Below, in pieces: positions 6,548 to 27,164 of a stretch of DNA of 64,000 bases. The translations under genes and the position numbers were made by a program. Source of the DNA: Bacillota bacterium (lineage in GTDB: Bacteria > Bacillota > Sulfobacillia > JAIMAT01); assembly GCA_029961055.1 (NCBI GenBank), contig JASBVM010000012.1, positions 55,741 to 119,740 on the forward strand. The letters run 5' to 3'. Under the pieces are notes generated by a model. The model was not told where the DNA came from. It was given only the letters and a program-made list of their open reading frames with translations, and did no database searches. The stretch's first letter is position 1. Each line of letters opens with the position of its first letter.

Positions 6548-8392
6548 TCAGACGATGCGGACCTTGTACTGCCGCAGCCAGGCGTCCGTCTGGACCAGGT
6601 AGGCGAAGAGCTGGGCGCCGCCCAGCAGCTGCGAGAACCAGGCCGGGTCGAAGGAACGGCCGTCCTCCTCGATCAGGGCGCGGACGCGCGCCACGTCGAG
6701 GAGCGGTACCAGCGGGGAGTCGGAATCCTCCAGGATGGCTTCCAGCCGCCGGCGCACCTCCTGCCGGAAGCCGGGGTGGTGGCTCTTGGGATAGGGACTC
6801 TTCCTTCTGGCCAGGACCTCCTCGGGCAGGATGCCGCGCATGGCCAGGCGGAGGATCCCCTTTTCGCGTCCACCCGCCGTCTTCAGCCGCCAGGGGATGT
6901 TCCAGACGTATTGGACGAGACGGTGGTCGCAGAAGGGGACCCGGACCTCCAGGCCGACACGCATGCTCATGCGGTCCATCCGGTCGAGCAGGATGGGCAG
7001 GAAGCGGGTGATATTGATGTACGACATGGCCCGCATGCGGGCCTCTTCCTCCCCCTCCCCGGGAAGTGGCGGCACCTCGGCGAGCGCTTCGCGAAAGCGC
7101 TCGGCCGCGTACTCCAAGGGGCGGACCCGGCGCCGCACGTCCGGCGCCAGGAGTTCGGCCCGTTCGGCGATCTTCCTCACCCAGGGAAGGCTTGGCCCGT
7201 CCAGCGCGCGGGGATCGCGGAACCAGGGATATCCCCCGAAGACCTCGTCGGCCGCCTCGCCCACCAGGGCGACGGTCGCCTCCCGTCTCACCTCGCGGCT
7301 GAAGAGGTAGAGCGAGGCGTCCACGTCCGCCATGCCGGGCAGATCCCGCGCCAGGAGGGCGGGCCGGAGCGCCGCCGCCAGCTCGCCGCTGTCGATGAGG
7401 AAGTCCCGGTGCCGCGTGGCGAAGGTCTCGGCCACCCGGTGGGCCCAGGGGCCGTCGGCATCGGGCTGGAAGGCGTTCGGCCGGAAGTAGCGGTCGTTCC
7501 CCACGTAGTCGACGCTGAAGGTCTGAAACGGGCCGCGGCCTTCGCGCCGGAAGGCGGCGGCCGCGAAGGCGGTGACCGCGCTGGAGTCGAGCCCGCCGGA
7601 GAGGAGGGCGCCGAGGGGCACGTCGGAGACCAGCTGCCGGCGGACCGCGTCCTCCAGGAGCTCCCGCACGCGGGCCGCTGTCGCCTCCAGCGAGTCGACG
7701 TGCGGCCGGCTCTCCAGCCGCCAGTAGCGGCGAAGCTCGACGCCCCGGCGGTCGAAGCGGAGCCAGCTGCCCGGCCGGAGCTCCTCGACGCCACGGAAGA
7801 CGCCCAGGCCCGGCGTCCGGCTCGGGCCCATGACGAAGATCTCGGCCAGGCCTTCCCCGTCGATCTCCGCCTCCATCGCCGGGTGGGCGAGGAGCGCCTT
7901 GATCTCCGAGCCGAAGAGGAGCCCGCCGCCGCGCCGCGCGAAGAAGAGCGGCTTGACGCCGAGCGGGTCGCGCGCCAGGAAGAGCGCCTCTTCCTCCTCG
8001 TCCCAGATGGCGAAGGCGAAGATCCCGTTGAGGCGCTCCGGTGCCCGCTCCCCCCACTCCATGTAACTGGCCAGGAGCACCTCGGTGTCGGAGTGGCCGC
8101 GGAAGCTGTAACCGCGGGCCAGGAGTTCGCCCCGCAGCTCCTCGGTGTTGTACAGCTCGCCGTTGTAGGTGAGGACGTAGCGGGCGCCGTGCCGCTCGCG
8201 CACCATGGGCTGGACGCCCACCTCGGGGTCGACCACGATCAGCCTGCGGTGGGCCAGCGCGGCGTGCGGCGAGAGCCAGAGGCCGGAATCGTCGGGTCCC
8301 CGGCAGGCCAGGGTGGCCCCCATCGCCTCCGCCACTCCAGCTTCCTGGCGGAGATCCCGCTCCCAGTCCACCCACCCTGCGATTCCGCACAC
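6548..8392 (-). CDS. asnB: Asparagine synthase (glutamine-hydrolysing)
   Basis: N-terminal MCGIAG nucleophile; SGGLDSS PP-loop; full-length 614 aa. Confidence 0.9.
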   Translation of the reverse strand: MCGIAGWVDWERDLRQEAGVAEAMGATLACRGPDDSGLWLSPHAALAHRRLIVVDPEVGVQPMVRERHGARYVLTYNGELYNTEELRGELLARGYSFRGHSDTEVLLASYMEWGERAPERLNGIFAFAIWDEEEEALFLARDPLGVKPLFFARRGGGLLFGSEIKALLAHPAMEAEIDGEGLAEIFVMGPSRTPGLGVFRGVEELRPGSWLRFDRRGVELRRYWRLESRPHVDSLEATAARVRELLEDAVRRQLVSDVPLGALLSGGLDSSAVTAFAAAAFRREGRGPFQTFSVDYVGNDRYFRPNAFQPDADGPWAHRVAETFATRHRDFLIDSGELAAALRPALLARDLPGMADVDASLYLFSREVRREATVALVGEAADEVFGGYPWFRDPRALDGPSLPWVRKIAERAELLAPDVRRRVRPLEYAAERFREALAEVPPLPGEGEEEARMRAMSYINITRFLPILLDRMDRMSMRVGLEVRVPFCDHRLVQYVWNIPWRLKTAGGREKGILRLAMRGILPEEVLARRKSPYPKSHHPGFRQEVRRRLEAILEDSDSPLVPLLDVARVRALIEEDGRSFDPAWFSQLLGGAQLFAYLVQTDAWLRQYKVRIV

Positions 8393-8505: not shown

Positions 8506-9345
8506 ATGCACCTGCTGGACTTCAGCCTCGTAGCCTTCGCGGCTTCGGTGGTCTTCGGCCTGTTGGGATCGCTCCTGGGGCTCGGTGGCGGGGTCTTCGT
8601 AGTCCCCATGCTTACCCTGGGGCTGGGGCTGGACATCCACGACGCCATCGGCGCCAGCATCGTCACCGTGATCGCCACCTCCAGCGGCGCCGCGGCCACT
8701 TACGTCCGCGACCATCTGACCAACATCCGGGTCGCCATGTTCCTGGAGATGGCCACCACGACGGGCGCCATCACGGGGGCGTTCCTGAGCGGTATCATCC
8801 CGGCCCGTTACCTTTACATCATCTTTGCGGCGCTGATGGGCTGGTCGGCACTGAACGCGCTCCAGAAGAGTCGCGGCACGCCCCCGGAGCCCCGTCAGGC
8901 CAGCCCCCTGGCGCGACGGCTGAAGCTCCAGGGCAGCTACTACGACGCGGCCCTGGGCCGGCAGGTGGAGTATGCCGCCACCGCCGTTCCCCAGGGATTC
9001 GGCATGATGTACGTGGCGGGTCTGATCTCGGGCCTGCTGGGAATCGGCTCCGGTGCCCTCAAGGTTCTGGCCATGGACGGCTTCATGCGGCTCCCGCTCA
9101 AGGTCTCCTCCGCCACCAGCAACTTCATGATGGGGGTGACGGCCGCGGCCAGCGCGGCCATCTACTTCGCCCGCGGTGACATCCGTCCGGAGACGACGGC
9201 GCCGGTCGCCCTGGGCGTCCTGCTGGGGGCCTCGCTGGGTTCGCTGGTCCTGACGCGGATCAGGAACCGGACGCTCCGGCTGATCGCCGTCCCGATCCTT
9301 CTTTTCATCGGCGTGGAGATGCTGTTGCGGGGTCTGGGGGGATAG
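8506..9345 (+). CDS. TauE/SafE (DUF81) family sulfite/anion exporter
   Basis: Two-repeat membrane protein with GLLGSLLGLGGGVFVVP and GLLGIGSGALKV motifs. Confidence 0.85.
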   Translation: MHLLDFSLVAFAASVVFGLLGSLLGLGGGVFVVPMLTLGLGLDIHDAIGASIVTVIATSSGAAATYVRDHLTNIRVAMFLEMATTTGAITGAFLSGIIPARYLYIIFAALMGWSALNALQKSRGTPPEPRQASPLARRLKLQGSYYDAALGRQVEYAATAVPQGFGMMYVAGLISGLLGIGSGALKVLAMDGFMRLPLKVSSATSNFMMGVTAAASAAIYFARGDIRPETTAPVALGVLLGASLGSLVLTRIRNRTLRLIAVPILLFIGVEMLLRGLGG

Positions 9346-9348
9346 ACG

Positions 9349-9741
9349 GTGTCCGAGCGGAAGGCCGCGCCGGTGGCGGAGGACGCGGGGACAGGGAAGG
9401 CGGTCGATCTCGAGCTCCTGATCAGCTGGGTCCTCCGGGCTGGGGTCCTGCTGAGCGCCGTGATCATGCTGGTCGGTCTCGTCCTCGTCCTGGTCCATCC
9501 CGCGGGGCTCCCTCTGGCACGCCCCGCCGGCTTCGCGCAGGTCTTCCTCGGCCTGGCCCGGGGAAACCCGCTGGCCGTCATCGACCTGGGCATCCTGATC
9601 CTGGTCCTCACCCCCATCGCGCGCGTGCTCCTCTCCGTCCTGATCTTCCTCCGCGAGCGCGACCTGACCTACACCGCGATCACCCTGTTCGTGCTGCTGG
9701 TCCTGATCATCAGCTTCCTGCTGGGCAAGGCGGGGGGGTAG
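9349..9741 (+). CDS. DUF1634 family membrane protein (frequent partner of DUF81)
   Basis: 130-aa protein with two TM segments; GTG start 4 nt after the DUF81 stop. Confidence 0.65.
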   Translation: MSERKAAPVAEDAGTGKAVDLELLISWVLRAGVLLSAVIMLVGLVLVLVHPAGLPLARPAGFAQVFLGLARGNPLAVIDLGILILVLTPIARVLLSVLIFLRERDLTYTAITLFVLLVLIISFLLGKAGG

Positions 9742-11061: not shown

Positions 11062-11499
11062 TCATCCGGCCGCCTTGCCGCGGCTGTACTGGATGGCCCA
11101 GACCAGGAGCCCGATGAACAGGATGTTGAGCGCGTACTCCGCCATCCCCTGGCGGAAGGCCGAGTCGCTCACCCGCCCCGGCAGGCTCTCCACGGTCAGG
11201 ACCAGGATCCGCCGGACGCTGGCGATGAGCGCGACCACCAGCAGCGGCTGGAAGTCCAGCACGTGCGTGCGGATGAAGACGACCACGGTGTGGAGCAGCT
11301 CGAGAAGCATCATCACCACCAGGAGCGGGTCGAGCACGCGGGCGACATCCGCGGTACCCCCCGCCCCCAGGAGCAGGCGGATCGCACTGACCAGCGCGGA
11401 GACCGCGAGGGCGACCAGCATGACGGCGACCGCCAGGTAGAGAGCGTCCTCGATCCAGTCCAGGAGGCGGACCCAGCCCCGTTCTTTCCCGCCCGGCAT
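11062..11499 (-). CDS. psiE: PsiE-family (phosphate-starvation-inducible E) membrane protein
   Basis: 145-aa four-TM protein with a PsiE-like profile; GAGGAGGA RBS. Its start is 1 nt after the MarR stop, suggesting an operon. Confidence 0.6.
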   Translation of the reverse strand: MPGGKERGWVRLLDWIEDALYLAVAVMLVALAVSALVSAIRLLLGAGGTADVARVLDPLLVVMMLLELLHTVVVFIRTHVLDFQPLLVVALIASVRRILVLTVESLPGRVSDSAFRQGMAEYALNILFIGLLVWAIQYSRGKAAG

Positions 11500-11500
11500 C

Positions 11501-12103
11501 CTACCGATCCTCCTCTGTCACGGCTCGTGCCCCCCCGCGCTCTGCAACCCCGCGGTGCAAACCGGGAGCGGCGTGGACCCGGTCCTCGCTCTCTCCCCCT
11601 CCGCCCTCCGGTACCTCCTTCGCCGGCCCCTCGGACCTCTCCGTCCGCTCCGCCCTCTCCGCCTGTTCGACGACCCGCTCCAGCAGAAGGGCCAGCTGTT
11701 CTTGCTCGGCCTCGCTCAAAGGCTCCAGGAGAAGTTCCAGCGACTGGAACAGGCGATCGCGCCAGGCCTGCACCTGGCCGAACCCGCGGGGTGTCAGGCG
11801 CACCTTGACGACCCGTTCGTCGCCCGTCTGCCGCTCGCGCCGGACGAAGCCACACCGCTCCAGCCGCTTGCAGGCCACGGTGACCGAACTCGGGCTGATG
11901 CCGAGCTGCGCCGCCAGCTCGCCGATGGACGTCGGACCGGACCTCTCCAGGTGCCGCAGCAGCCAATACTGCTCCGGCGTCATCTCACCGCGGCGCACGG
12001 GATGCGTGCGGCGGCGGAGAAGGCGCCAGAGCGCGATGAACGCATGGACGAACCTCTCGCTGGCCGTGGCCCCCGCCCCCTGTCCGGATTGTAGACGATG
12101 CAC
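11501..12103 (-). CDS. MarR family transcriptional regulator
   Basis: ERFVHAFIALWRLL..LTPEQYWLLRHLERSGPTSIGELAAQLGISPSSVTVACKRLERCGFVRRE winged-helix. Start taken as GTG 12103; the alternative ATG 12178 overlaps the divergent -10 box. Confidence 0.7.
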   Translation of the reverse strand: MHRLQSGQGAGATASERFVHAFIALWRLLRRRTHPVRRGEMTPEQYWLLRHLERSGPTSIGELAAQLGISPSSVTVACKRLERCGFVRRERQTGDERVVKVRLTPRGFGQVQAWRDRLFQSLELLLEPLSEAEQEQLALLLERVVEQAERAERTERSEGPAKEVPEGGGGESEDRVHAAPGLHRGVAERGGARAVTEEDR

Positions 12104-12144
12104 GCCCCGTCGTTCCGTGACGGAACGTGGCGTCCCGCTTCGGG

Positions 12145-12173
12145 TTGCACGGGGCGGGGGTCCAGGGTATATT
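12145..12173 (+). promoter_or_regulatory. Sigma-A type promoter for yceI-like gene (TTGCAC-17 nt-TATATT)
   Basis: Near-consensus -35/-10 with 17-nt spacer about 40 nt upstream of the ATG at 12215, in the divergent marR/yceI intergenic region. Confidence 0.45.
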
Positions 12174-12214
12174 TTCATAGTCGTCGAAATACCTGTGCCA
12201 AGGGAGGCTTGGGG

Positions 12215-12784
12215 ATGTCGGTCGGTCAAGCTGCTGAGGAGACGAGCCGGAGCGGCACCGTCTGGAAGGTGGACCCAGTCCACACCACGGTGGAGTTCTC
12301 CGTCCGCCACATGATGATCGCCACGGTGCGCGGCCAGTTCACGCAGGTCGCCGGCGAGCTGCGCGGGGACCCGGACAACCTGCCGGGCTGCCAGATCGAG
12401 GGGGTCATCCAGGCGGCCTCCGTCGATACACGCGAACCCAACCGGGACGCGGACCTCCGGTCCGCCAACTTCTTCGACGTCGAGCGCTACCCGGAGATCC
12501 GCTTCGAGAGCCGGAGCATCACATCCCGCGGCGGGGGAGACGAGTACGAGGTCCTCGGCGACCTGACCATGCACGGCGTCACCCACCCCGTCACCCTTAC
12601 CCTCACCCTCGAAGGTCAGATTCGGGACCCCTACGGCCACCAGCGCGTCGGCTTCACCCTGGAAGGCTCGCTCAACCGGAAGGATTGGGGCCTCAACTGG
12701 AACGTGGTGCTGGAAGCCGGCGGAGTGATGGTCAGCGACCAGGTGAAGATCGTCGTCCACGTCGAGGCGGTCCGGCAGGACTGA
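12215..12784 (+). CDS. YceI family (polyisoprenoid-binding) protein
   Basis: WKVDPVHTTVEFSVRHMMIATVRGQF...DVERYPEI.F....G.L..HGVT.PV is the YceI signature; AGGGAGG RBS. Confidence 0.85.
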   Translation: MSVGQAAEETSRSGTVWKVDPVHTTVEFSVRHMMIATVRGQFTQVAGELRGDPDNLPGCQIEGVIQAASVDTREPNRDADLRSANFFDVERYPEIRFESRSITSRGGGDEYEVLGDLTMHGVTHPVTLTLTLEGQIRDPYGHQRVGFTLEGSLNRKDWGLNWNVVLEAGGVMVSDQVKIVVHVEAVRQD

Positions 12785-12945
12785 GCCCCCTGACAGCGGC
12801 CGACTGCTCGCTGCCCGGTACCGGTACCATCGCGGGCCGGGCGGCGAGCCGGCCGCCGGCCTTCCCGCTTCTCGCTCCCCGATATTCCCTTTCACGCGAT
12901 TGCCGCCTATGATCATGACGAGAACCCAGAAGGGAGGGCGGCTCC

Positions 12946-13320
12946 GTGAAGCGGATCCGGGTTGAGATCGTGGGGCTTCTTCCGGAATTCTTCAACATGT
13001 GCGCCGCCTGCCAGGGGATGGACGTCCTCCAGGTGGCCCGGCTGGATTACGCCCGCGACCAGTTGGGCGACTACCCGCCCGAGGTGGCGGAGGAGCAGCA
13101 ACGGGCGGTGGAGGTGGTCCATGCGCTGGTGACCGAGTTCGGCTCCGCCGTCGAGCCGGTCACCGTGGATGCCTACTCGCCCCAAGGGCTCTGGCTCACC
13201 CTCCGGCACCGGATCGGCAGGGGCCCGGCCCTGATCGTGGCGGGTCGCCACGTCGTCCGCCAGCTCTCGCCGACGGCGGCCTGCGAGGCGGTGAGGGAGG
13301 AGCTGCGGGCCTCGGCCTGA
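12946..13320 (+). CDS. Small CxxC protein, possibly YuzD-like (DUF1462, thioredoxin fold)
   Basis: VEIVGLLPEFFNMCAACQG ... GPALIVAGRHV resembles the YuzD pattern (VELxVYGAExICASCVN ... IVAEG). GTG start with GAAGGGAGG RBS. Confidence 0.4.
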   Translation: MKRIRVEIVGLLPEFFNMCAACQGMDVLQVARLDYARDQLGDYPPEVAEEQQRAVEVVHALVTEFGSAVEPVTVDAYSPQGLWLTLRHRIGRGPALIVAGRHVVRQLSPTAACEAVREELRASA

Positions 13321-13484
13321 ACCCGCCCAGCCTGTCCCAGGTTTTCCGGCGGTCGTCCGCGTCGTCGTTTCCCTTTGAGTCGGCCCCTTCGCCCCAATAG
13401 AAGGATTTCGTTCTTCGCCGGTCGAATCCACGTTTCACAGCGCCGCCGGTCACGGCGGTGACGCTTCCTCGGGGAGGGAGAGCT

Positions 13485-15209
13485 GTGACGACGCCGTTCT
13501 GGTTCGTGGTGGCGGCCCTGGTCTTCTACGCCATCGCCTACCTGGTCTACGGCCGCTGGTACGATCGGACGGTCTGGAGACCGGACCCGAAGCGGACCAC
13601 GCCGGCCCACATGTACATGGATGGCGTGGAGTTCTTCCCGGCGAGCCGCTATGTGCTCTGGGGGTACCAGTTCAAGAGCGTCGCCGCCCTGGGACCGATC
13701 CTGGGCCCCTTCATCGCTCTCCAGTATGGCTGGCTTCCCGCCTTGATCTGGATCATCTTGGGCAACTTCTTCATCGGGTGGCTTCAGGACTACGGGGCCA
13801 TCATGGTCTCGGTGCGGAACAACGGACGCTCCTTCGGCCCCATCGCGTACGAGTTCACGGGCGCCAGCGGGCGCAGCACCCTGCTCGGTTTCATCCTGTT
13901 CTACCTGCAGATGATCTCCGCCACCTTCGTCTTCTTCATCGCCCAGTTCTGGAACTCGCTCCCCGGCACCTTCGCGGCCACCGTAGGGGTCATCATCACG
14001 GCGGTCATCGTCGGCCAGCTGATGTACAAGGTTCGCCTCAACGTGGGGTTGACCACGTTGATCGGTCTCGTCCTGGTCGCTCTCTCCGTGGTCGCCGGGG
14101 TCTACCTCCGGACCCCCACCGATCCCTTCGGCGCCTGGTCGATCCCGTTCTGGGCGGCCCTGGTCGGCGTCTTCCTCTTCGTCGCGTCGGTGGTACCGCT
14201 GCCCTCGCTGATCCAGCCGATGAACTTCATCAGCTTCTTCCCCACCTTCCTCGCGGTGCTGCTGATCATCGTCGGCGGGCTGCTCTCGCCGGTCTTCCAC
14301 GTCCCCCTGCAGCAGCCGGCCTGGAAGGGCTTCTGGTCGCCGAACACCGGGCCGCTCTGGCCCATGATGTTCCTGGCCATCGCCTGCGGCGCCATCTCCG
14401 GCTGGCACAGCCTGGTGGGCAGCTCCACCACGGCCAAGCAGCTGGACCTGGAGACCGACGCGCACCCCGTGGGCGCGGGCGCCATGCTGTCGGAGGGCCT
14501 GGTGGCGCTCGCCTCGCTGGCCGCCTACATGGTGCTGGCACCCGGCGAGATCACCAAGAACACCACCGCCTGGGTCGCGGGAGCGATCCGCCTGACGGAA
14601 GGCTTTCTCGGCGGACCGGGAGCGGCCGCCTTCCTGGCCACTTTCTTCGGCGTCTCGCTGGTGCTCTACGCCATCACGGTCCAGTCGCTGGTCACCCGCT
14701 TCTGGCGCCTCATCTCCGCCGAGGTCGCCGGCCAGGGGCGCTTCGCCGTGCTCGGCCAGAAGCACGTGGCCACCTTCCTCGGCATCCTGATCGCCTGGCT
14801 CTTCGCCGTCTCGGGCTCGTGGAACAACCTCTGGCTCTACTTCGGCGGCTCCAACCAGCTGCTGGCCGGCTTGGCGCTGATGCTGGTCTCCATCCACCTG
14901 GCCAGGGCGCGGAGCCAGACCGGCTGGACCTTCTGGCCGGCCATGTTCATGATCGTCACCACCATCTTGGGCCTCGCCTACCAGACCTACATCTTCGCGA
15001 AGGCGGTCTACACGGGGAAGACGCTGGTCCAGCCGCCCCTGGGCAACATCGCTTGGGCGGCACACACCCTGGACGGCATCTTCACCGTGGTGGGCGTGGT
15101 GCTGATCGTCCTCGGCGTCCGCATGGCCATCATGACGCTCCGCTCGTACTTCGCAGCGCGGGCACGCCCGGTCTCCATGGTGGGCGAGTCGGCCAGCCCG
15201 GCGCGCTGA
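13485..15209 (+). CDS. cstA: Carbon starvation protein A (peptide/pyruvate transporter CstA family)
   Basis: 575-aa polytopic protein with the full-length CstA pattern (WGYQFKS..LGPI.GP..A.Q.GWLPA..WI..G); GTG start after GGGAGGGAG. Confidence 0.9.
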   Translation: MTTPFWFVVAALVFYAIAYLVYGRWYDRTVWRPDPKRTTPAHMYMDGVEFFPASRYVLWGYQFKSVAALGPILGPFIALQYGWLPALIWIILGNFFIGWLQDYGAIMVSVRNNGRSFGPIAYEFTGASGRSTLLGFILFYLQMISATFVFFIAQFWNSLPGTFAATVGVIITAVIVGQLMYKVRLNVGLTTLIGLVLVALSVVAGVYLRTPTDPFGAWSIPFWAALVGVFLFVASVVPLPSLIQPMNFISFFPTFLAVLLIIVGGLLSPVFHVPLQQPAWKGFWSPNTGPLWPMMFLAIACGAISGWHSLVGSSTTAKQLDLETDAHPVGAGAMLSEGLVALASLAAYMVLAPGEITKNTTAWVAGAIRLTEGFLGGPGAAAFLATFFGVSLVLYAITVQSLVTRFWRLISAEVAGQGRFAVLGQKHVATFLGILIAWLFAVSGSWNNLWLYFGGSNQLLAGLALMLVSIHLARARSQTGWTFWPAMFMIVTTILGLAYQTYIFAKAVYTGKTLVQPPLGNIAWAAHTLDGIFTVVGVVLIVLGVRMAIMTLRSYFAARARPVSMVGESASPAR

Positions 15210-15243
15210 ACGGCAGGCAGGCAGTCGGCCAGAAACCGGCGCC

Positions 15244-15266
15244 GGGCAGGGCGCAGTGCCCTGCCC
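15244..15266 (+). terminator. Stem-loop GGGCAGGGC-gcagt-GCCCTGCCC downstream of cstA (GC-rich terminator without a clear U-tract)
   Basis: Perfect 9-bp inverted repeat 35 nt after the cstA stop. Confidence 0.35.
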
Positions 15267-15298
15267 TGGCGCCACTTCAGGGGACGAGGTGAGGGAGA

Positions 15299-15610
15299 TT
15301 GCTCTGGCGACGGAAGAAGACCGAAAAGGAGAACCCTTCCCAGGCTGAGGGCACGGAGAAGCAGGGCTTGGGAACGGCGATGAAGGACGTCCTCTACGGC
15401 ATGGCCTCCCACGGGAACGTGACCGCGGCACTCCGGACGCGCATGTACATGGAGCACCTCTTCATGTTCATCACCCTGGGCGACATGCTGGGCATCCCCG
15501 TTCTGCCGCCCTACTACTCGCTCCGGATCCTCCCGTACGCGGTGCCCAACATCGAGTCCTGGAAGCAGCGGGTCTTCCGCGAGCGCGACTTCACCGACGC
15601 GCTCTACTAG
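15299..15610 (+). CDS. Small protein of an unrecognised family (paralog of 18908-19270), first gene of the ArsA-pair operon
   Basis: TTG start after GAGGTGAGGGAG RBS; high GC3. The C-terminal half MEHLFMFITLGDMLGIPVLPPYYSLRILPYAVPNIESWKQRVFRERDF aligns with DLIRLMIFGEFLGLPLMNASVGLRLLPYALEGLPGWRERLSQEFDI of the minus-strand paralog. Confidence 0.5.
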   Translation: MLWRRKKTEKENPSQAEGTEKQGLGTAMKDVLYGMASHGNVTAALRTRMYMEHLFMFITLGDMLGIPVLPPYYSLRILPYAVPNIESWKQRVFRERDFTDALY

Positions 15611-15663
15611 CCGGATCGCAACGTCCAGCGTCCGGCGAGATGAGATCACCGGAGGTGAACCCC

Positions 15664-16662
15664 TTGAAGCCGGCTGGGCTCAAAGCCTACTTCGACGCAC
15701 ACCCCGAGATCCGCGTCGCCATCTTCGCCGGCAAGGGCGGGCTGGGAAAGACGACGTCCAGTTCCTCCCTCGCCTACTACCTGGCCACCGAGAAGAAACG
15801 GAAGACGCTTCTCTTCAGCACCGACCCCCAGGCCTCGCTGTCGGACATCTTCGAGCAGAACTTCTTCGGCAAGGGCGTCATCGAGGTGATCCCCAACCTC
15901 TTCGTGGTCGAGATCGACGCCGACCGTCGGGTGGCCGAGTACCAGGCCGGCGTCAAGCAGAAGATCCGCGACATGTACGGCCTGGCGGAACTGCCCCGGG
16001 AGATCGAGGAGTACATCGACTCCTCCTCCGCCGAGCCGTCCATGTACGAATCGGCCACCTACGACGCCATGGCCGAGCTGGTGGCGGCCAACGAGTTCGA
16101 CATGTACATCTTCGACATGCCGCCCTTCGGTCACGGCGTGCGCATGGTCGCCATGGCCGAGATCCTCTCCAAGTGGGTGGAGAAGATCACCGAGGCACGC
16201 AGCCAGGTGGCGGAGTATGAGCAGGTCGCCGCCTCGCTCAAGGGCGAGCGCGCGCAGGAAGATGCCATGATGGCCGAGCTGCTCGACATCCGCCAGCGGA
16301 TCACCACCTTCACCGACCTGATCACCAACCAGACCAGCACCGGTTTCTTCATGGTGCTGATCCCGGAACAGATGGCGATCCTGGATACCGACCGGGCCCT
16401 GGCCATGTTCTCCGAGCTGGGCATCCAGCTCTCCGGCCTGATCGTCAACCAGGTCTACCCGCCCGAGCTGCTGGAGCAGCCCAACCTGAGCGAGTTCCTG
16501 CGCAACCGCCTGGAGGGCCAGCGTCCCTACCTCCAGGAGATCGAGCGCAAGTTCGGCGAGAGGGTTCTCTCCGTGGTACCGATGTACACCCGTGAGCCGA
16601 AGGGGCTGGAGATGATCGCGCGGGCCAGCGCCGACCTGATGGAGTGCAAGGTGGCTGTCTAG
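15664..16662 (+). CDS. ArsA/GET3-family anion-transporting-type ATPase, half-size (one nucleotide-binding domain), copy 1
   Basis: P-loop AGKGGLGKTT and DMPPFGHG (DTAPTGHT-like switch II). TTG 15664 preferred (GGAGG 8 nt upstream; N-terminus then aligns with copy 2); ATG 15640 is the alternative. Confidence 0.85.
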   Translation: MKPAGLKAYFDAHPEIRVAIFAGKGGLGKTTSSSSLAYYLATEKKRKTLLFSTDPQASLSDIFEQNFFGKGVIEVIPNLFVVEIDADRRVAEYQAGVKQKIRDMYGLAELPREIEEYIDSSSAEPSMYESATYDAMAELVAANEFDMYIFDMPPFGHGVRMVAMAEILSKWVEKITEARSQVAEYEQVAASLKGERAQEDAMMAELLDIRQRITTFTDLITNQTSTGFFMVLIPEQMAILDTDRALAMFSELGIQLSGLIVNQVYPPELLEQPNLSEFLRNRLEGQRPYLQEIERKFGERVLSVVPMYTREPKGLEMIARASADLMECKVAV

Positions 16663-16720
16663 ACGACCCGGGCGGATGCGCTCCCGCGCCCGACCCAGGA
16701 AGGGAGGACGATCCCCGACC

Positions 16721-17746
16721 ATGCAGAGCCTGAGCGAGTTCCTCGAGGAGCATCCCAACCTGCGCTTCGTCTTCACCGGCGGGAAGGGCGGGGTCGGCAA
16801 GACCGTCAGCGCCGCCGTCCTGGCCTACCACTTCGCCCGGCAGGGCAAGCGGACGCTGCTGGCCTCGCTCAACCCCGTCCACTCCCTCTCCAGCCTCTTC
16901 GGCCAGGACCTCTCCGGCGGCCAGGTGCGGCCGGTCCAGGGAGTCGACAACCTCTTCGCCATCGAGGTGAACACCGAGGACGCGGTCCAGCGCTACCGCG
17001 ACAGCGTCAGCACCCGCATCCGGGAGTTCCTGCGCTACGCCGACATCCCGGTGGACGCCCGTCCCTTCATCGACATCGCCATGACCAACCCGGCCTTCGA
17101 GGAGTCGGCGATGTTCGACAAGATGACCGACATGATGCTGATGCAGTCCGGCGAGTACGACCGCATCGTCTTCGACACGGCCGCCGTCGCCAACGCCGTC
17201 CGGCTGATCGGCCTCTCCAAGATCTACGGCCTCTGGCTGGGGCGGCTGATCGAAAGCAGGAAGGAGGCGCTCTCGCTGCGCGTCCAGCTCTCCTTCCGCA
17301 AGGAGAAGGTGATGGAAGAGGTCCGGCAGGATCCGATGATGGCCGACCTGATCGGCATGAACGACCGCTTCGAGAGGGTGAAGGGGCTCCTGGTCGATCC
17401 GGAGACCACCGCCTTCTTCTTCGTCACGCTGCCGCTCTCGCTGCCCATCTCGGTGGTCAAGCGCTTCATCGAGATGGTGCGCGCCTACGACATCCCGGTG
17501 GGTGGCGTGATCGTCAACGAGGTGATCACCCGCGACGCGCTCGGCGAGGAGCCGGACGAGTACCTGCGCAACAAGTTCGCCGAGCAGGGGAGCTACCTGC
17601 AGACCATCCAGGCCGACCTCGGCCCGCTGGTCCGCACCTACCTGCCGCTCTACCCGCGCGAGGTGGTCGGCCTGGAGGCGGTCGACCGGGTGGCCGAGGA
17701 CATGTTCCGGCCCAGCCAGGACCTGGCCGCCGAGCTGCCCGCCTGA
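16721..17746 (+). CDS. ArsA/GET3-family ATPase, half-size, copy 2 (degenerate switch II)
   Basis: P-loop GGKGGVGKT is intact, but the DTAPTGH position reads DTAAVANA. GGAAGGGAGGA RBS; 58 nt after copy 1. Confidence 0.85.
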   Translation: MQSLSEFLEEHPNLRFVFTGGKGGVGKTVSAAVLAYHFARQGKRTLLASLNPVHSLSSLFGQDLSGGQVRPVQGVDNLFAIEVNTEDAVQRYRDSVSTRIREFLRYADIPVDARPFIDIAMTNPAFEESAMFDKMTDMMLMQSGEYDRIVFDTAAVANAVRLIGLSKIYGLWLGRLIESRKEALSLRVQLSFRKEKVMEEVRQDPMMADLIGMNDRFERVKGLLVDPETTAFFFVTLPLSLPISVVKRFIEMVRAYDIPVGGVIVNEVITRDALGEEPDEYLRNKFAEQGSYLQTIQADLGPLVRTYLPLYPREVVGLEAVDRVAEDMFRPSQDLAAELPA

Positions 17747-17783
17747 GGGCCGGCCGGTCTCCTCCACCGCGCGGAGGCGAGCG

Positions 17784-18266
17784 ATGGGCGAGCACCTGAT
17801 TGCCGCGCACAACCTGATCCTGGGCACCGTCAACTTCCTGGTGCTCAGCCTGCCGGAGGGGTGGGGGCTGAGCGACCCGGGAGGTCCTCCCGAGGTGGAG
17901 TCGCGGGTCCTGCGCGACGGCGTCTCCTGGGCCCGGGACGGCCAGGCCGCCTACCTCCTCCGGCTCGCCGACGGCCGCCTGGCCCGTCTCGACCTCCGCG
18001 CCGGTCCGGCGACTCCTCCCGTCCCGAGCGGCTTCCGCCCCGAGCGGCCGGTCGCGGAGGTCCCTGTGGGCGGCCACCCCGCCCGCGCCGAGTCGGGGCG
18101 GGCGCGCCCCTTCCTGGGACGGTTCGGCCGGGCCCGGCCGGTCCTGACGCTGGCCTTCCGCTGCCCCGAGACCGACCGGGGGCTGCGGCTCTCCGTCTGG
18201 GGGGAGCTGCGGCCCGAGGAGCGGGAGGAGCTCCTGCAGAGCCTGGCTGCCGTCGCCTGCCACTGA
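17784..18266 (+). CDS. Hypothetical protein (160 aa), last gene of the ArsA-pair operon
   Basis: High GC3 coding signal; hydrophobic N-terminal segment AHNLILGTVNFLVLSL; no recognised domain. Confidence 0.45.
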   Translation: MGEHLIAAHNLILGTVNFLVLSLPEGWGLSDPGGPPEVESRVLRDGVSWARDGQAAYLLRLADGRLARLDLRAGPATPPVPSGFRPERPVAEVPVGGHPARAESGRARPFLGRFGRARPVLTLAFRCPETDRGLRLSVWGELRPEEREELLQSLAAVACH

Positions 18267-18309: not shown

Positions 18310-18335
18310 GGCCCCCGGGGCGCTTCCCGGGGGCC
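18310..18335. terminator. Bidirectional stem-loop GGCCCCCGGG-gcgctt-CCCGGGGGCC between convergent operons
   Basis: Perfect 10-bp stem between the 17784-18266 (+) and 18353-18859 (-) gene ends. Confidence 0.4.
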
Positions 18336-18907: not shown

Positions 18908-19270
18908 TCAGTCCACGTGGGGCAGCTCGTCCACGATGTCGAACTCCTGGGAGAGCCGCTCCCGCCAGCCCGGCAGCCCCTCCAGGGCATAGGGGAGCAG
19001 GCGCAGGCCGACGGAGGCGTTCATCAGCGGCAGGCCGAGAAATTCGCCGAAGATCATCAGGCGGATCAGGTCGTCCAGCTTCCTGGCCTGCTCGCGGGTC
19101 TCGCGGTAGGTGTCGTAGAAGAAGAGGCCCCAGGCGAACTGGCGGAGTCCCTCCCGCCAGCCGGGACGCCCGCGCCGGCCGCCGTCTCCCGTCTCAGTCC
19201 CCGCCGTCCTCCCCACCTCCCGGAGCCGCCGCCCCCCGGGCCCGGGCGTTTCCATCTCTCCCGCGCTCAT
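18908..19270 (-). CDS. Small protein (120 aa), paralog of 15299-15610
   Basis: ATGA start/stop overlap with the upstream gene. The C-terminal region LRQFAWGLFFYDTYRETREQARKLDDLIRLMIFGEFLGLPLMNASVGLRLLPYALEGLPGWRERLSQEFDIVDEL is homologous to the plus-strand small protein. Confidence 0.55.
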   Translation of the reverse strand: MSAGEMETPGPGGRRLREVGRTAGTETGDGGRRGRPGWREGLRQFAWGLFFYDTYRETREQARKLDDLIRLMIFGEFLGLPLMNASVGLRLLPYALEGLPGWRERLSQEFDIVDELPHVD

Positions 19271-20049
19271 GCCGGCGTGCCGAAGACCTGGTCCCGCCAG
19301 CCGCGGAAGTACCGCTCGCTGGCGAAGTTGAGCACCCGCCGCGCCCGCCGGAAGTGGGCGGCCAGGCTCTCCAGCACCCCCCGCCACCCGGAGAGGCTGG
19401 CTCCTGCCTCTTCCGAGGCCATCTCGTAGTAGCGGCGCCCCTCCGCCTCCAGCCAGTCCAGCGGCGTCGCAGAGAGGTTGGCCACGTGCTCGGCGAAGAC
19501 GCCGCTCAGGAAGAGCGCCAGGTCGCCCACCCGCCGGTAGACCAGGAAGCGGTCGCGGGGATCGACCATCCCCGCCAGCTCCTTCATCCGCCGCAGGTCC
19601 AGCTCGCTCACCCGGATGCGGCGAGGACCGCGCGGCGTCCGCACCCAGATCCGGCCGCTGGCGGCGCGGGTGAACGAGGCCAGGAGGAGCGCCAGATACT
19701 CCCGGCGCTCCGGATCGCCCAGGAACCGGACCAGCTCGGGCGTGTCGAAGAGCGGGACGCGCATCCGCGGCCCCGCCAGCTCGCTGGCGTAGCTGGTGCT
19801 GGCCAGCTCCCGCAGCGCCTGCCGCAGGAAGACCTCGAAGAGAAGGAAGGGTGTCACCCTGGCCAACCCTTCCTCCACCCGCGAGAGCCTCTCGAAGAGC
19901 CGCGGGTTGTCGAGCATCACGTCCACCAGCTCCGGCGCCCGGCGCAGCCGCTCCACCGCGGAGGGATCGTCCCCCTGCCCCGCCGCCTCCACCAGGAAGC
20001 GCAGGTCTCGCTCGCTCAGATGCTCCAGAAGGAGCGGCACGGCCGCCAT
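19267..20049 (-). CDS. Hypothetical protein (260 aa)
   Basis: Balanced composition (MAAVPLLLEHLSERDLRFLVEAAG...); translationally coupled to the downstream small paralog; no recognised domain. Confidence 0.5.
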   Translation of the reverse strand: MAAVPLLLEHLSERDLRFLVEAAGQGDDPSAVERLRRAPELVDVMLDNPRLFERLSRVEEGLARVTPFLLFEVFLRQALRELASTSYASELAGPRMRVPLFDTPELVRFLGDPERREYLALLLASFTRAASGRIWVRTPRGPRRIRVSELDLRRMKELAGMVDPRDRFLVYRRVGDLALFLSGVFAEHVANLSATPLDWLEAEGRRYYEMASEEAGASLSGWRGVLESLAAHFRRARRVLNFASERYFRGWRDQVFGTPA

Positions 20050-20092: not shown

Positions 20093-21100
20093 TTACTCCG
20101 CTTTCTGCCCGCCGTCGAAGCGCCAGATGCCGCCTTCCCGGACCATCCTGGCGGTGTAGACGACGTTTTCCGTCATTCCCTCCAACTGGAAGGTCCCCTG
20201 CAGCCGCACCTCCGCCCGCTGGCCCTCGCCGGTCTTGGCGTCGCCTCCCACCGGCCGGCCCGCCTCCGCGGTGTAGCCCCGGTAGCTCCCCAGGCCCTCC
20301 GCCCAGGCGGTGACGTCCACGGCCGCGGGCTTCCCGTACCGGGCGCGCAGCCCGGGTCCCATCAACCGCCACATGGCCTCGCGGTCGGGGATGGCCGCGA
20401 TCCAGAGATCCAGCGCCTCCTCCGGTGCCAGACCCCGCACCAGCTCCGAATCCAGCGGAGGCAGAAGCCGCCGGAAGAGGAAGCCCTCCCCCGTGAAGGG
20501 ATGCTCCTCGCTGCCCACCCGCGCCCCCTCCACCCGCAGCTCGACGCCCTTGACGCCCTGGACGGAGGCGGCCGTCAGCGCGATCTGGTCGAGGAGCGTC
20601 CCGACCGCCAGCGTCCCGCCCGCCTGCTCCAGCTCGCCGGAGAAGTCGAGCACCGCCACCGGCCGGGCCACCTCCACCCCGAGCAGCCGGGTCCCCCGGG
20701 GCAGGGCGCTGGCCCACCCGGCCCGCCGCTCTTCCTCGGTCGGCCCGGAGAGAAGCGCCTCCATCGCCGCCCTCAGCCGCGCGTGCACGTCGTCCGGGCG
20801 CACCCCCTCCGGCAGCGGGCGGCGGACCGGGGCGAGGACGGGCCGCTGTCTCCCGCCTCCGCTCCCGTGCACGAAGTAGACCGCCAGGGCGGGCTCGCCC
20901 TCGGGTGCGGGCCCTTTCCGGGAGGGGGGCGCCCCTTGGCTGGCGCCTCCGGGAGCCGGTCCCGTCCCCGCCCCCGTCCCCGACCCCACCCCGACCCCCT
21001 GCCCGCAACCGGCGCCCAGCAGGAGAAGGGCGAGGAGCAGCGCGCTCCCCAGGCGCCGGCCCGCCCGTCGCCATCCGCCTTTCCGATGCCGCACGTCCAT
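20093..21100 (-). CDS. Lipoprotein with GerMN (sporulation/germination GerM-like) domain
   Basis: Signal peptide plus lipobox LLLLGAGC; low-complexity linker; LAVYFVH...G.. and a second beta-rich repeat typical of GerMN domains. Confidence 0.65.
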   Translation of the reverse strand: MDVRHRKGGWRRAGRRLGSALLLALLLLGAGCGQGVGVGSGTGAGTGPAPGGASQGAPPSRKGPAPEGEPALAVYFVHGSGGGRQRPVLAPVRRPLPEGVRPDDVHARLRAAMEALLSGPTEEERRAGWASALPRGTRLLGVEVARPVAVLDFSGELEQAGGTLAVGTLLDQIALTAASVQGVKGVELRVEGARVGSEEHPFTGEGFLFRRLLPPLDSELVRGLAPEEALDLWIAAIPDREAMWRLMGPGLRARYGKPAAVDVTAWAEGLGSYRGYTAEAGRPVGGDAKTGEGQRAEVRLQGTFQLEGMTENVVYTARMVREGGIWRFDGGQKAE

Positions 21101-25337: not shown

Positions 25338-27164
25338 TTGGACGGCAACCCCGACAAGGAACGGGCCCGGGGCGCGGTGCCCGAGCGGAACGCCACCGAT
25401 CCGCGCTACCGCTGGCGGGTGGAGGATCTCTTCCCCGACGAGGAGAGCTGGGAGAGGGCGCTGCAACAGGCGGAGGCGACGATTCCCCGGCTGGCGGCGC
25501 TGCGCGGCCGGCTCGCCGGCGGCGCCGGCGAACTGCTCGCCGTCCTCCGCGCGGCCGACGAGCTGGAGCTGGCGCTGGAGCGGCTCGTCGTCTACGCCAA
25601 GCTGCGCATGGACGAGGATCAGCGCGTCAGCCGCCACCAGGAGATGATGGACCGCGCCATGGCGGTGGCCACCCGGGCGGCCGAGGCGGGGGCCTTCATC
25701 GAGCCCGAGATCCTGGCCATCGACCCCGAGCGGCTCCGGCGCTGGCAGGAGGAGGAGCCCGGCCTCGCCCCCTACCGCCAGCGCTTGAGCGTGCTGGAAC
25801 GCCTCCGCCCCCACGTGCGCTCGGCCGAGATGGAGGAGCTGCTGGCCTCGGCCGGCCAGATGGGCCAAGCCCCGGGGCGGATCTTCGAGGCCGTCCAGTA
25901 CGCCGACATGCGCTTCCCCACCATCCGTGACGCGCGCGGCAAGGAAGTGGAGATGAGCCACGGGCGGTACACCCGCCTCCTGGAGGAGCCCGACCGGGAG
26001 GTCAGGCGGCGCGCTTTCGCCGCCATGGGCGAGACGCTGGCCCGGCACCGCCACACCCTGGCCGCCTCGCTCCAGGCGGAGGTGCGCAAGAACGTCTTCT
26101 TCGCCCGGGCGCGGCGCTACGGCTCGGCGCGGGAGGCGGCGCTGGCGCCCCACCAGATCCCGGTCTCGGTCTACGACAACCTGGTCCAGACCGTCCGTCG
26201 CCACCTGGACCTGCTCCACCGCTGGGTGGCGCTCCGGAAGCGGGCGCTGGGCCTGGACGAGATCCACCTGTACGACGTCTACGTCCCCGTCGACGCCGGC
26301 GAGGAGCGCCCCATCCCCTACGAGGAAGCGGTCCGCCTGGTGGAGGACGGCCTCCGCCCGCTGGGCGAGGGGTACCTGCGCGATTTCGACGCCGGCGTGC
26401 GCGGCGGCTGGGTGGACGTCTATGAGAACCGCGGCAAGGCGTCCGGCGCGTACACCAGCACCGTCTACGGGACACACCCCTACGTCCTGCTCAACTACCA
26501 GGAGAACCTGGACAGCGTCTTCACGCTGGCCCACGAGATGGGCCACGCCATGCACAGCTTCTACTCCAACGCCCGCCAGCCGTACCCCACGTCGCAATAC
26601 GCCCTCTTCGTGGCCGAGGTGGCCTCCACCCTGAACGAGTCGCTCCTCATCCAGGAGATGCTGGAACGGACCCGGGACCCCATGGAGCAGCGCCGGCTCC
26701 TGGACCGCTACCTGCAGGCCTTCCGGGCGACGCTCTTCCGGCAGACGCTCTTCGCCGAGTTCGAGCAGCGGATTCACGAGCTGGTCGAGTCCGGCGGCGC
26801 GCTCCAAGCCGAGAACCTCTCCACGATCTACCACGACCTGAACGTCGACTACTTCGGGCCGGAGATGGTGATCGACGCCGAGATCGACCTGGAGTGGGCC
26901 AGGATCCCCCACTTCTACATGAACTTCTATGTCTACCAGTACGCCACCGCCTTCTCCGCCGCCACCGCCCTGGCCCAGCGGATCCGCCGCGAAGGCGAGC
27001 CGGCGCAGCGCAGATACCTCGACTTCCTCGCCAGCGGCAGCTCGCGCGACCCCCTGGACCTGCTCGAGGCCGCTGGCGTCGACCTGCGCCGGCCCGAGCC
27101 CATCGAAGAGGCGCTCGCCTTCTTCTCCCGGCTTCTCGACCGCTTCGAGGCAACGGGGCTATGA
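25338..27164 (+). CDS. pepF: Oligoendopeptidase F (M3B family)
   Basis: HEMGHAMH zinc motif with downstream E; full-length M3B architecture. TTG start after GGAGGGTGAGG. Confidence 0.9.
   Translation: MDGNPDKERARGAVPERNATDPRYRWRVEDLFPDEESWERALQQAEATIPRLAALRGRLAGGAGELLAVLRAADELELALERLVVYAKLRMDEDQRVSRHQEMMDRAMAVATRAAEAGAFIEPEILAIDPERLRRWQEEEPGLAPYRQRLSVLERLRPHVRSAEMEELLASAGQMGQAPGRIFEAVQYADMRFPTIRDARGKEVEMSHGRYTRLLEEPDREVRRRAFAAMGETLARHRHTLAASLQAEVRKNVFFARARRYGSAREAALAPHQIPVSVYDNLVQTVRRHLDLLHRWVALRKRALGLDEIHLYDVYVPVDAGEERPIPYEEAVRLVEDGLRPLGEGYLRDFDAGVRGGWVDVYENRGKASGAYTSTVYGTHPYVLLNYQENLDSVFTLAHEMGHAMHSFYSNARQPYPTSQYALFVAEVASTLNESLLIQEMLERTRDPMEQRRLLDRYLQAFRATLFRQTLFAEFEQRIHELVESGGALQAENLSTIYHDLNVDYFGPEMVIDAEIDLEWARIPHFYMNFYVYQYATAFSAATALAQRIRREGEPAQRRYLDFLASGSSRDPLDLLEAAGVDLRRPEPIEEALAFFSRLLDRFEATGL

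Follow-up and report, generated by a model that had tools for sequence, protein, structure and literature searches.

ATPases of the Get3/ArsA fold are understood in two settings, the pumping of arsenite and tail-anchored protein targeting. Here we analyse a locus that places them in a third, widespread context. It lies in a 64,000-nucleotide stretch of a Bacillota bacterium genome (Sulfobacillia, JAIMAT01; assembly GCA_029961055.1, contig JASBVM010000012.1, positions 55,741 to 119,740 of the forward strand), which we call the window and number from its first letter. At positions 15,299 to 18,266, two tandem genes encode single-domain ATPases of this fold, ArsA1 and ArsA2, within a gene module that includes a permease of the CstA family.

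The closest described relatives of this locus were reported by Castillo and Saier in 2010. In the SEED, they identified 26 operons in which cstA is linked to a homologue of ArsA, 24 of them with a protein of ~90 aa named CstX, and five archaeal operons with 'CstY', a protein of ~210 aa with a single transmembrane segment (TMS) (PMC2963123). One group, cluster 15, is of the tandem-pair type and comprises Symbiobacterium thermophilum and Pyrobaculum arsenaticum (PMC2963123). Thermococcus kodakarensis is another carrier of a homologous operon in their list. The trees of CstA, CstX and ArsA were congruent, and it was proposed that the ATPase energises CstA while CstX acts as the coupling element (PMC2963123). 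The same study noted that the Asp of the 'SxD' motif can be Asn and that DTAP is less conserved in single-domain proteins, without analysing the pairs as asymmetric dimers, and that the metalloid Cys triad is absent from single-domain homologues (PMC2963123).

Operons of the cstA-cstX-arsA type, including those with tandem pairs, were known beforehand, and as far as we found the kind is uncharacterised experimentally. Our literature searches for later papers or experiments on the module yielded only Castillo and Saier 2010, and a keyword search in the text of a survey of Get3 natural history found no mention of the CstA context. New in the present analysis are the extension of the module to eight genes, the finding that its two ATP sites differ in a fixed way, the fold and the invariant Cys and His residues of the accessory protein orf160, the terminal His of a second CstX paralogue (CstX2) and a set of gene fusions. 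The initial annotation had presented the pair as bracketed by unknown proteins and of unknown function. This description does not hold, as the 103-aa protein upstream is DUF7990/CstX, a CstA gene precedes it and the module was already in the literature (PMC2963123).

A conserved module around two ATPases

The ATPase pair is the core of a conserved module of seven to eight genes, which in the window are arranged as follows (coordinates, strand, product; aa, amino acids; GC3, GC content at third codon positions).

12946-13320, plus strand: orf124, a small Cys protein of 124 aa (GC3 0.91; jackhmmer)
13458-15209, plus strand: CstA-family permease, 583 aa, polytopic (PF02554 match; many hydrophobic segments)
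15299-15610, plus strand: CstX1 (DUF7990, PF25952), 103 aa, with a basic, disordered and variable N-terminal tail and a 75-aa, ultra-conserved helical core
15640-16662, plus strand: ArsA1 (copy 1), Get3/ArsA-family ATPase, 340 aa, presumed catalytic subunit
16721-17746, plus strand: ArsA2 (copy 2), Get3/ArsA-family paralogue, 341 aa, presumed to bind ATP and to be impaired in hydrolysis
17784-18266, plus strand: orf160, 160 aa
18353-18859, minus strand: orf168, with an N-terminal transmembrane (TM) helix and a cytoplasmic domain (hydropathy)
18908-19270, minus strand: CstX2, second DUF7990 paralogue, 120 aa (exact protein marked PF25952)

GC3 lies between 0.91 and 0.97 in every gene of the cluster, which supports these open reading frames (ORFs) as real coding regions. 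A longer reading of ArsA2 from 16676 has no ribosome-binding site, and an AGGGAGG sits 13 nt before the ATG at 16721. Because only this ATG has a ribosome-binding site, the gap between the ATPase genes is 58 nt. Coordinates and ribosome-binding site thus agree with the initial annotation, which had listed four ORFs and two tandem single-domain ATPases at this spacing.

A scan of one genome per species gave 80 loci, and the window proteins served as queries against six-frame ORFs from 82 non-redundant loci. Synteny of the ATPase and CstA genes was counted in the 65 loci whose sequence continues for at least 2.3 kb past CstX1 on its downstream side, and the complete module in 34 loci with wide flanks. 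ArsA1 and then ArsA2 follow CstX1 in 64 of the 65 loci, immediately in 61 and after an insertion in three. The latter belong to Anaerolineae (L032, L056, L058) and carry orf124 and CstX2 between CstX1 and ArsA1, which indicates that the order of the module genes is variable while their content is fixed. Only one locus, L017, from a metagenome-assembled genome (MAG; JBBIMK010000008.1), has CstX1 without ArsA1, ArsA2, CstA, orf160, orf168 and CstX2 in the fetched 13 kb.

In 50 of the 65 loci, the gene directly upstream of CstX1, in the same orientation, is CstA; seven others carry CstA at a different place in the locus. Some Bathyarchaeia (L057, L059, L060, L073) have it downstream of ArsA2 and on the other strand, and in Thermoproteota (L081, L084) it is upstream in divergent orientation. 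Among the 34 wide loci, orf168 is found in 28, CstX2 in 27, orf160 in 25 and orf124 in 17; all eight genes are present in 15. Most loci encode a second CstX paralogue. In a group of Bathyarchaeia (L057, L059, L060, L062, L071, L073, L074, L076, L085) it is a different paralogue, encoded directly upstream of CstX1. All-against-all clustering of the non-module ORFs of the 82 loci revealed no ninth component that recurs across phyla. The closest relative of the window locus among these loci is L006.

At least eight prokaryotic lineages contain the module, and clustering at 90% leaves ~1300 DUF7990 sequences. The bacterial lineages include Bacillota, with Symbiobacteriaceae and Thermaerobacter, Limnocylindria and other Chloroflexota, Thermodesulfobacteriota and Terriglobia; the archaeal ones include Thermoplasmata, Methanomassiliicoccales, Bathyarchaeia, Geothermarchaeales and Thermoproteota. 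The pair had initially been framed as a matter of Firmicutes and sporulation, a frame that proves too narrow for a module common to Thermoplasmata, Bathyarchaeia and Thermoproteota. Likewise, the gene neighbourhood, which was to be compared across Firmicutes, is kept far beyond them: the loci that retain the pair with CstX1 come from bacterial and archaeal phyla.

Unequal nucleotide sites in two paralogues

Both ATPases match the family models over their full length, with 226 bits (ArsA1) and 189 bits (ArsA2) to PF02374 ArsA_ATPase (cut-off 24.3) and 215 and 198 bits to TIGR00345 GET3_arsA_TRC40 (cut-off 135). They are 33% identical to each other. ArsA1-type orthologues (n=70) reach 407 bits or more with ArsA1 and no more than 198 bits with ArsA2; ArsA2-type orthologues (n=68) reach 374 bits or more with ArsA2 and no more than 187 bits with ArsA1. 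Judged by these scores, ArsA1 and ArsA2 are separate, ancient paralogues that form two distinct orthologous groups. The window proteins share 61% (ArsA1) and 64% (ArsA2) of their residues with the archaeal orthologues, and at least 95% conservation is reached at 119 of 340 positions in ArsA1 and at 121 of 341 in ArsA2.

The two proteins differ in the motifs that surround the nucleotide.

15814-15843, plus strand: ArsA1 switch I, FSTDPQASLS, catalytic Asp62 kept (aligned to STDPAHSL of 3UG6)
16111-16137, plus strand: ArsA1 switch II, FDMPPFGHG, a DTAPTGH variant that keeps D, P, G and H (alignment, translation)
16865-16888, plus strand: ArsA2 switch I, SLNPVHSL, with Asn51 (16871-16873) for the catalytic Asp (aligned to STDPAHSL of 3UG6)
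17171-17206, plus strand: ArsA2 switch II, FDTAAVANAVRL, with AVAN in place of PTGH (alignment, translation)

These motifs, and the P-loops AGKGGLGKTT of ArsA1 and GGKGGVGKT of ArsA2, were checked by translation. Both ATPases carry the deviant Walker A motif (GKGGxGKT) with its signature Lys. The catalytic Asp of switch I, equivalent to D57 of yeast Get3, is present in ArsA1 only. In yeast Get3 this residue positions and primes the water that attacks ATP (PMC10248533). The canonical switch II sequence DTAPTGH is found in neither protein and reads DMPPFGH in ArsA1 and DTAAVAN in ArsA2. The initial annotation had already pointed out the switch II sequences (DMPPFGHG in copy 1, DTAAVANA in copy 2), which translation bears out; the Asn51 of copy 2 had escaped it.

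The asymmetry is fixed across orthologues. Across 71 ArsA1 sequences there is essentially no variation in the P-loop, in FSTDPQASLS or in FDMPPFGHG. The same applies to GGKGGVGKT and FDTAAVANAxRL in 67 ArsA2 sequences, in which position 51 of switch I is Asn in 66. Within ArsA2 switch II, A155, A157, N158, A159, R161 and L162 are found in 67/67 sequences, V156 in 66/67 and Thr153 in 59/67, and Asn266, which contacts the adenine, is invariant. To judge from these motifs, ArsA1 retains every catalytic element, and ArsA2 keeps the nucleotide-binding elements without the catalytic Asp and the switch II His.

Since the unusual motifs of ArsA2 are fixed and its conservation equals that of ArsA1, we regard it as a specialised rather than a decaying subunit, which its pattern of conserved positions and its identity to the archaeal proteins suggest to be under strong purifying selection. 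Copy 2 had been called degenerate. This is correct insofar as its switch II deviates from the canonical sequence, and too simple for a protein whose motifs are invariant and which shares 64% identity with archaea. An asymmetric heterodimer of ArsA1 and ArsA2, as initially suggested, is the natural reading of the pair.

Permease, CstX and accessory proteins

The permease matches PF02554 CstA with 361 bits, along residues 14-367, i.e. in its N-terminal 360 residues only, and reaches 172 bits with PRK15015, the model of the E. coli type of CstA (cut-off 1188). By these matches it is a member of the CstA family from a divergent subfamily. By analogy with the family, its substrate might be pyruvate or small peptides.

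CstX1 has 1297 homologues, which are 65-90% identical, occur in Bacillota, Armatimonadota, Anaerolineae and archaeal MAGs, and all bear the precomputed Pfam mark PF25952 (DUF7990). In its core, 43 positions are at least 95% conserved. AlphaFold2 predicts helices at residues 23-63, 71-81 and 85-102 and no confident tertiary fold (pLDDT 60.6, pTM 0.26). Because CstX1 is extremely conserved yet has no confident fold of its own, it is likely shaped by its partners, as would be expected for an interface adaptor. CstX was previously described as a single-TMS protein (PMC2963123). Hydropathy and AlphaFold2 do not support a classical TM helix here: the highest 19-residue hydropathy window of CstX1 is 1.41, under the TM threshold of 1.6. 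The core contains a Met-rich hydrophobic stretch ~28 residues from the C-terminus, and the last 28 residues are ultra-conserved and have a high density of charge.

CstX2 shares 33% identity with CstX1. In 34 of 46 orthologues it terminates in His, within the motif AP-x-[IVL]-H. Both CstX proteins score 32-33 bits with the cory-CC-star model NF041419 (cut-off 80), and their C-termini read ...DALY and ...PHVD, not the Cys-Cys implied by the family name. They are thus related to the cory-CC-star family without being members of it. Scans of Pfam and NCBIfam at E up to 10 gave no YbdD/YjiX-type match for CstX, and nothing significant was found when its profile was compared with the PDB.

Several unusual gene structures involve CstX. 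In P0164 the C-terminus of CstA is joined directly to the CstX1 core, in P0222 and P0258 orf124 is fused to a CstX2-type domain, and P0001, on a 460-kb contig, contains two DUF7990 domains in one ORF of 180 aa. As each fusion rests on one or two database sequences, this evidence is modest, and supportive rather than strong for a physical association of the proteins. In MAGs of Thermoplasmata type (L003, L004, L005), the stop-to-stop ORF of CstA ends at 7943 and that of CstX1 begins at 7947, in the same frame and with one stop codon between them. P0004, from an 800-bp contig, is a circular-looking two-domain protein that may be an assembly artefact. P0200, a protein of 991 aa in which the C-terminal segment of CstX1 was matched in 15 stretches, was discarded as a low-complexity artefact; it looks like a translated satellite repeat.

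The sequence of orf160 is identical to QJR14_05010, which places the window in an uncultured Bacillota MAG. It has no family in Pfam or NCBIfam at E up to 10, and its profile gave nothing significant against the PDB. Its structural model shows a confident fold of the Mog1/PsbP/Eag-chaperone type, which includes the DUF1795 Eag chaperones, as judged by superposition on family members. The model therefore describes a putative soluble accessory protein with this fold. Invariant residues are His98, Cys127, Thr130, Arg132 and the C-terminal pair Cys159-His160. His98 and Cys127 are located on neighbouring antiparallel strands of the model (register inferred), and the Cys and His residues probably form a metal site. 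Conserved residues of the ligand type are thus seen at the C-termini of two module proteins, a His in CstX2 and Cys-His in orf160.

The TM helix of orf168 is predicted from a 19-residue hydropathy of 2.12 at residues 7-25, which is followed by a conserved nRRR motif. It probably corresponds to the protein that Castillo and Saier named 'CstY'. It has no family in Pfam or NCBIfam at E up to 10; a match to BatA is non-significant (E 0.2).

orf124 came to our attention because it forms the N-terminal part of the fusions P0222 and P0258. With jackhmmer, it is detected within the module in ~40 loci at varying positions. An N-terminal Cys is at least 90% conserved and part of a CxxC here (C19-x2-C22), and a second motif reads S-x-RG-x-WL-x2-RHR. 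There is no family match in Pfam, NCBIfam or the PDB and no significant match to thioredoxin-fold structures; a thioredoxin-like fold is only suspected. A profile comparison shows no relation between orf124 and orf160. We also considered orf124 as a homologue of ArsD and dropped this idea, as hhalign gave a probability of 1.9% against an ArsD sequence entered by hand.

The surroundings of the module in the window contain the following features.

18310-18335, no strand: GC-rich perfect inverted repeat GGCCCCCGGG-GCGCTT-CCCGGGGGCC, between the convergent orf160 and orf168 (read from sequence)
19267-20049, minus strand: orf260, 260 aa, doubtful as a module member; the stop overlaps the CstX2 start by 4 nt (shown by the gene calls of L086)
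20093-21100, minus strand: GerM (Germane-domain) gene, 43 nt from orf260, which follows
8506-9741, plus strand: TauE/SafE exporter with its DUF1634 partner
11062-11499, minus strand: PsiE-family protein
12098-12784, plus strand: YceI-like protein
25338-27164, plus strand: M3 oligopeptidase F

The inverted repeat is likely a bidirectional terminator without a T run, and for lack of this run it was missed by the scan for consensus terminators. The terminator calls were otherwise uninformative, and the promoter scan found no promoter. orf260 has no family match (Pfam/NCBIfam, E up to 10), and its arrangement with GerM looks lineage-specific, since it is seen only here and in L006. The neighbouring GerM gene may be the source of the suggested link to sporulation. 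The last four regions of the list are ordinary and unrelated to arsenic. From 12001 to 18000 the GC content is the lowest of the window (0.667-0.673 versus 0.695-0.789 elsewhere). A recent horizontal transfer was considered for this dip and rejected, as GC3 is 0.91-0.97, as in the module genes of higher GC content and in the GerM gene. With GC3 in this range throughout, the dip is better explained by the constrained amino-acid composition of CstA, CstX1 and ArsA1. An Rfam search of the window and five loci yielded a single tRNA (in L001) and neither a riboswitch nor any other RNA.

Proposed mechanism and known systems

We propose that ArsA1 and ArsA2 form an obligate asymmetric heterodimer, which serves as the cytoplasmic engine of a CstA-family transporter module and docks to it via CstX1 and CstX2. 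On the present evidence we consider this proposal probable, if not strongly so. In this process, ATP at the ArsA2 site would act as a stable 'glue' and turnover would take place at the ArsA1 site only. The D57N mutation abolishes hydrolysis in Get3. The predicted catalytic site is that of ArsA1 (ArsA1 D62, ArsA2 N51), and the dimer may pass through a one-stroke cycle of closing and opening, as in heterodimeric ABC exporters with one degenerate site. CstX1 and CstX2, the predicted coupling elements, would tether the dimer to the permease and transmit its motion. We counted the parallel between the CstX pair and the ATPase pair in favour of one CstX per ATPase subunit. The CstA-type carrier could in this way become an ATP-driven or ATP-gated transporter, according to the ArsA-ArsB principle. 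The TM-anchored orf168 may help to dock the complex at the membrane, and orf160 and orf124 would be accessory factors, such as a chaperone, a regulator or a means of handing over substrate or metal.

A more far-reaching version is possible, and we lean towards doubting it. It holds that the module is an ancient bacterial-archaeal machine of eight proteins, in which an asymmetric Get3-type heterodimer is mechanically coupled to a CstA carrier via two CstX helices. ArsA2 would be the natural equivalent of D57N, and the module a second, independent example of the ArsA-ArsB principle. On this version, the coupling of transporters would stand beside tail-anchored targeting as an ancestral job of the Get3 fold.

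If the ATPase indeed drives or gates CstA, the view of the 'carbon starvation' transporter family would change. The pair would further offer a natural single-turnover Get3-like motor for mechanistic work.

Several points weigh against the proposed engine. That the two ATPases form a heterodimer and that ArsA2 is defective in hydrolysis is deduced from homology, and the linkage of genes shows neither physical coupling nor the direction of transport. Characterised CstA/BtsT carriers work without an ATPase, and in some Bathyarchaeia CstA is encoded on the other strand or did not turn up in the flank that was fetched. The searchable literature yielded no experiment on any component of the module. 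Both ATPases are closer to archaeal Get3, a chaperone of tail-anchored proteins, than to ArsA. In line with this, 13 Met of ArsA1 are conserved in at least 70% of sequences and are reminiscent of a client-binding groove, and the model of orf160 resembles chaperones that bind TM helices.

These last points lead to the first and main alternative, a dedicated GET-like biogenesis machine. Here, the heterodimer captures the hydrophobic helix of CstX or of another small membrane protein, is loaded by orf160 and received by orf168 at the membrane, and delivers the subunits to CstA or assembles them onto it, in place of powering transport. The best PDB matches of both ATPases are archaeal Get3 (3UG6 and 3ZQ6; 142-182 bits, with 182 bits for ArsA1 and 3UG6), also Chlamydomonas ARSA1, with E. 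coli ArsA as a weaker match for both, and the cut-off of TIGR00345 is passed. Both also align to 3UG6 nearly gap-free through the region after switch II, which we take to be the site of the TRC40-insert. The conserved Met of ArsA1 would fit such a machine, as would the Met-rich stretch of the CstX core, the single-pass architecture of orf168 with its cytoplasmic domain and the Eag-like fold predicted for orf160. However, the CxxC zinc hinge is absent in both ATPases, where the positions aligned to CDFC of 3UG6 read SEFL (ArsA1) and DEYL (ArsA2), and the segments aligned to the 3UG6 lid region are, by inspection, less hydrophobic than in 3UG6. The hydropathy of CstX is below that of a TM helix, and its charged, ultra-conserved C-terminal 28 residues are unlike a translocated tail. 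A machine of eight genes for a single permease would be unusual, and strict co-evolution with CstA has been reported (PMC2963123). We thus regard the GET-like explanation as unlikely, though worth keeping in mind.

A second alternative, which we rate as rather improbable, is a metal, metalloid or redox system. The SIMIBI ATPase pair would then be a metallochaperone or sensor comparable to ArsA/ArsD, HypB, UreG or CooC, and orf124, orf160 and CstX2 would hand a thiophilic or imidazole-binding ligand to the CstA-like permease. This idea draws on the invariant His98, Cys127 and Cys159-His160 of orf160, the terminal His of CstX2, the conserved Cys of orf124 with its CxxC, the relationship to an NCBIfam family (cory-CC-star) named for a C-terminal Cys-Cys, and the same three-tier layout as in ArsA/ArsD/ArsB. 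The ATPases themselves do not support it, as neither contains a Cys that is at least 95% conserved (the best is ArsA1 C58, 53/71) and the metalloid triad of ArsA is absent, as also reported earlier (PMC2963123). Similarity of orf124 to ArsD or, at a significant level, to thioredoxin folds was not detected in the comparisons above, and the Cys and His residues of orf160 could hold zinc for purely structural purposes. Neither Rfam, in the window and five loci, nor ORF clustering of the 82 loci revealed a metal-responsive regulator or a riboswitch.

The pair might also be a free-standing regulatory heterodimer like BagA/BagB (Rv3679/Rv3680), unrelated to its neighbours, a very remote prospect. 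BagA/BagB is likewise a tandem pair of single-domain ArsA-like proteins without ars genes and has been implicated in protecting against the toxicity of glycerol and nitric oxide (PMC10597346). Nevertheless, ArsA1 scores 40.3 bits with NF053622 (cut-off 400) and 32.4 bits with NF053621 (cut-off 521), and ArsA2 50.4 and 36.5 bits. In the BagA/BagB structure 6BS3, E is 2.7e-5 for chain A, with its best stretch in the P-loop region, and 6e-4 for chain B (15-172), with no single stretch significant. In addition, the neighbours are conserved with the pair in ~60 genomes. The initially proposed link to Rv3679/Rv3680 is thus reduced to an architectural analogy.

That the pair is the ArsA of a canonical arsenite pump split by a frameshift, as the Pfam domain name and the sizes of the halves might suggest, can practically be dismissed, given 33% identity, own start and stop codons of each gene, two orthologous groups (70 and 68) with distinct scores, separate genes in ~65 genomes, TIGR04291 scores of 94.5 and 97.2 bits (cut-off 650) and the missing metalloid Cys. 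The scores to TIGR04291 and to the BagA/BagB models are so far under the cut-offs that membership of these families is excluded. No ars genes (arsB/acr3, arsC, arsD, arsR) were found among the GC3-selected ORFs tested at 4-29 kb of the window, and no ars-type family recurs in the 82 related loci. The initial judgement that arsenite efflux is unlikely is well founded on these grounds and on the lack of highly conserved Cys.

How does the proposed engine compare with known systems? In E. coli cstA-ybdD and btsT-yjiX, a CstA-family carrier is followed by a small conserved protein, and there are no ATPase genes. Heterodimeric ABC exporters are a functional analogy, in which a dimeric motor with one consensus and one non-hydrolytic site acts on a membrane transporter. 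Their ATPase fold, ABC, is unrelated to the SIMIBI fold of the module, in which motor and membrane domain are separate proteins.

Get3/TRC40 and the archaeal Get3 proteins of M. jannaschii (3UG6) and M. thermautotrophicus (3ZQ6) share the single-domain organisation and the deviant Walker A motif with ArsA1 and ArsA2. In contrast to the two fixed paralogues encoded with a permease here, Get3 is a homodimer that is encoded alone; the pair of the window has no CxxC hinge and carries a natural Asn in one subunit. BagA and BagB, both of which are contained in 6BS3, resemble the pair in their tandem arrangement. To our knowledge, BagAB has no link to CstA or CstX. It is very distant in sequence, has a different neighbourhood and has been tied to glycerol and nitric-oxide stress (PMC10597346).

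The ArsA-ArsB(-ArsD) system shares more of its layout with the module: an ATPase of the Get3/ArsA fold with two non-equivalent sites, a permease of the secondary-carrier type and a small Cys accessory protein. Unlike the fused ArsA of ~580 aa, the halves here are separate, single-domain genes. They have no metalloid Cys triad (C113/C172/C422 in E. coli), the CstA permease is unrelated to ArsB, and the two CstX adaptors have no counterpart in ArsAB.

Closest of all is cluster 15 of Castillo and Saier. Its genes agree with those of the window in kind and order, with CstA, a CstX of ~90 aa and a pair of neighbouring single-domain ArsA homologues (~330 aa), and there are neither ars genes nor arsR. 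Its description is purely bioinformatic and does not include the Asp-to-Asn/AVAN asymmetry, the second CstX paralogue, orf160, orf124 or the fusions. The published identity between its two copies is 25-31%, versus 33% here, and the Symbiobacterium loci in our set (L014, L015) carry pairs orthologous to ArsA1 and ArsA2.

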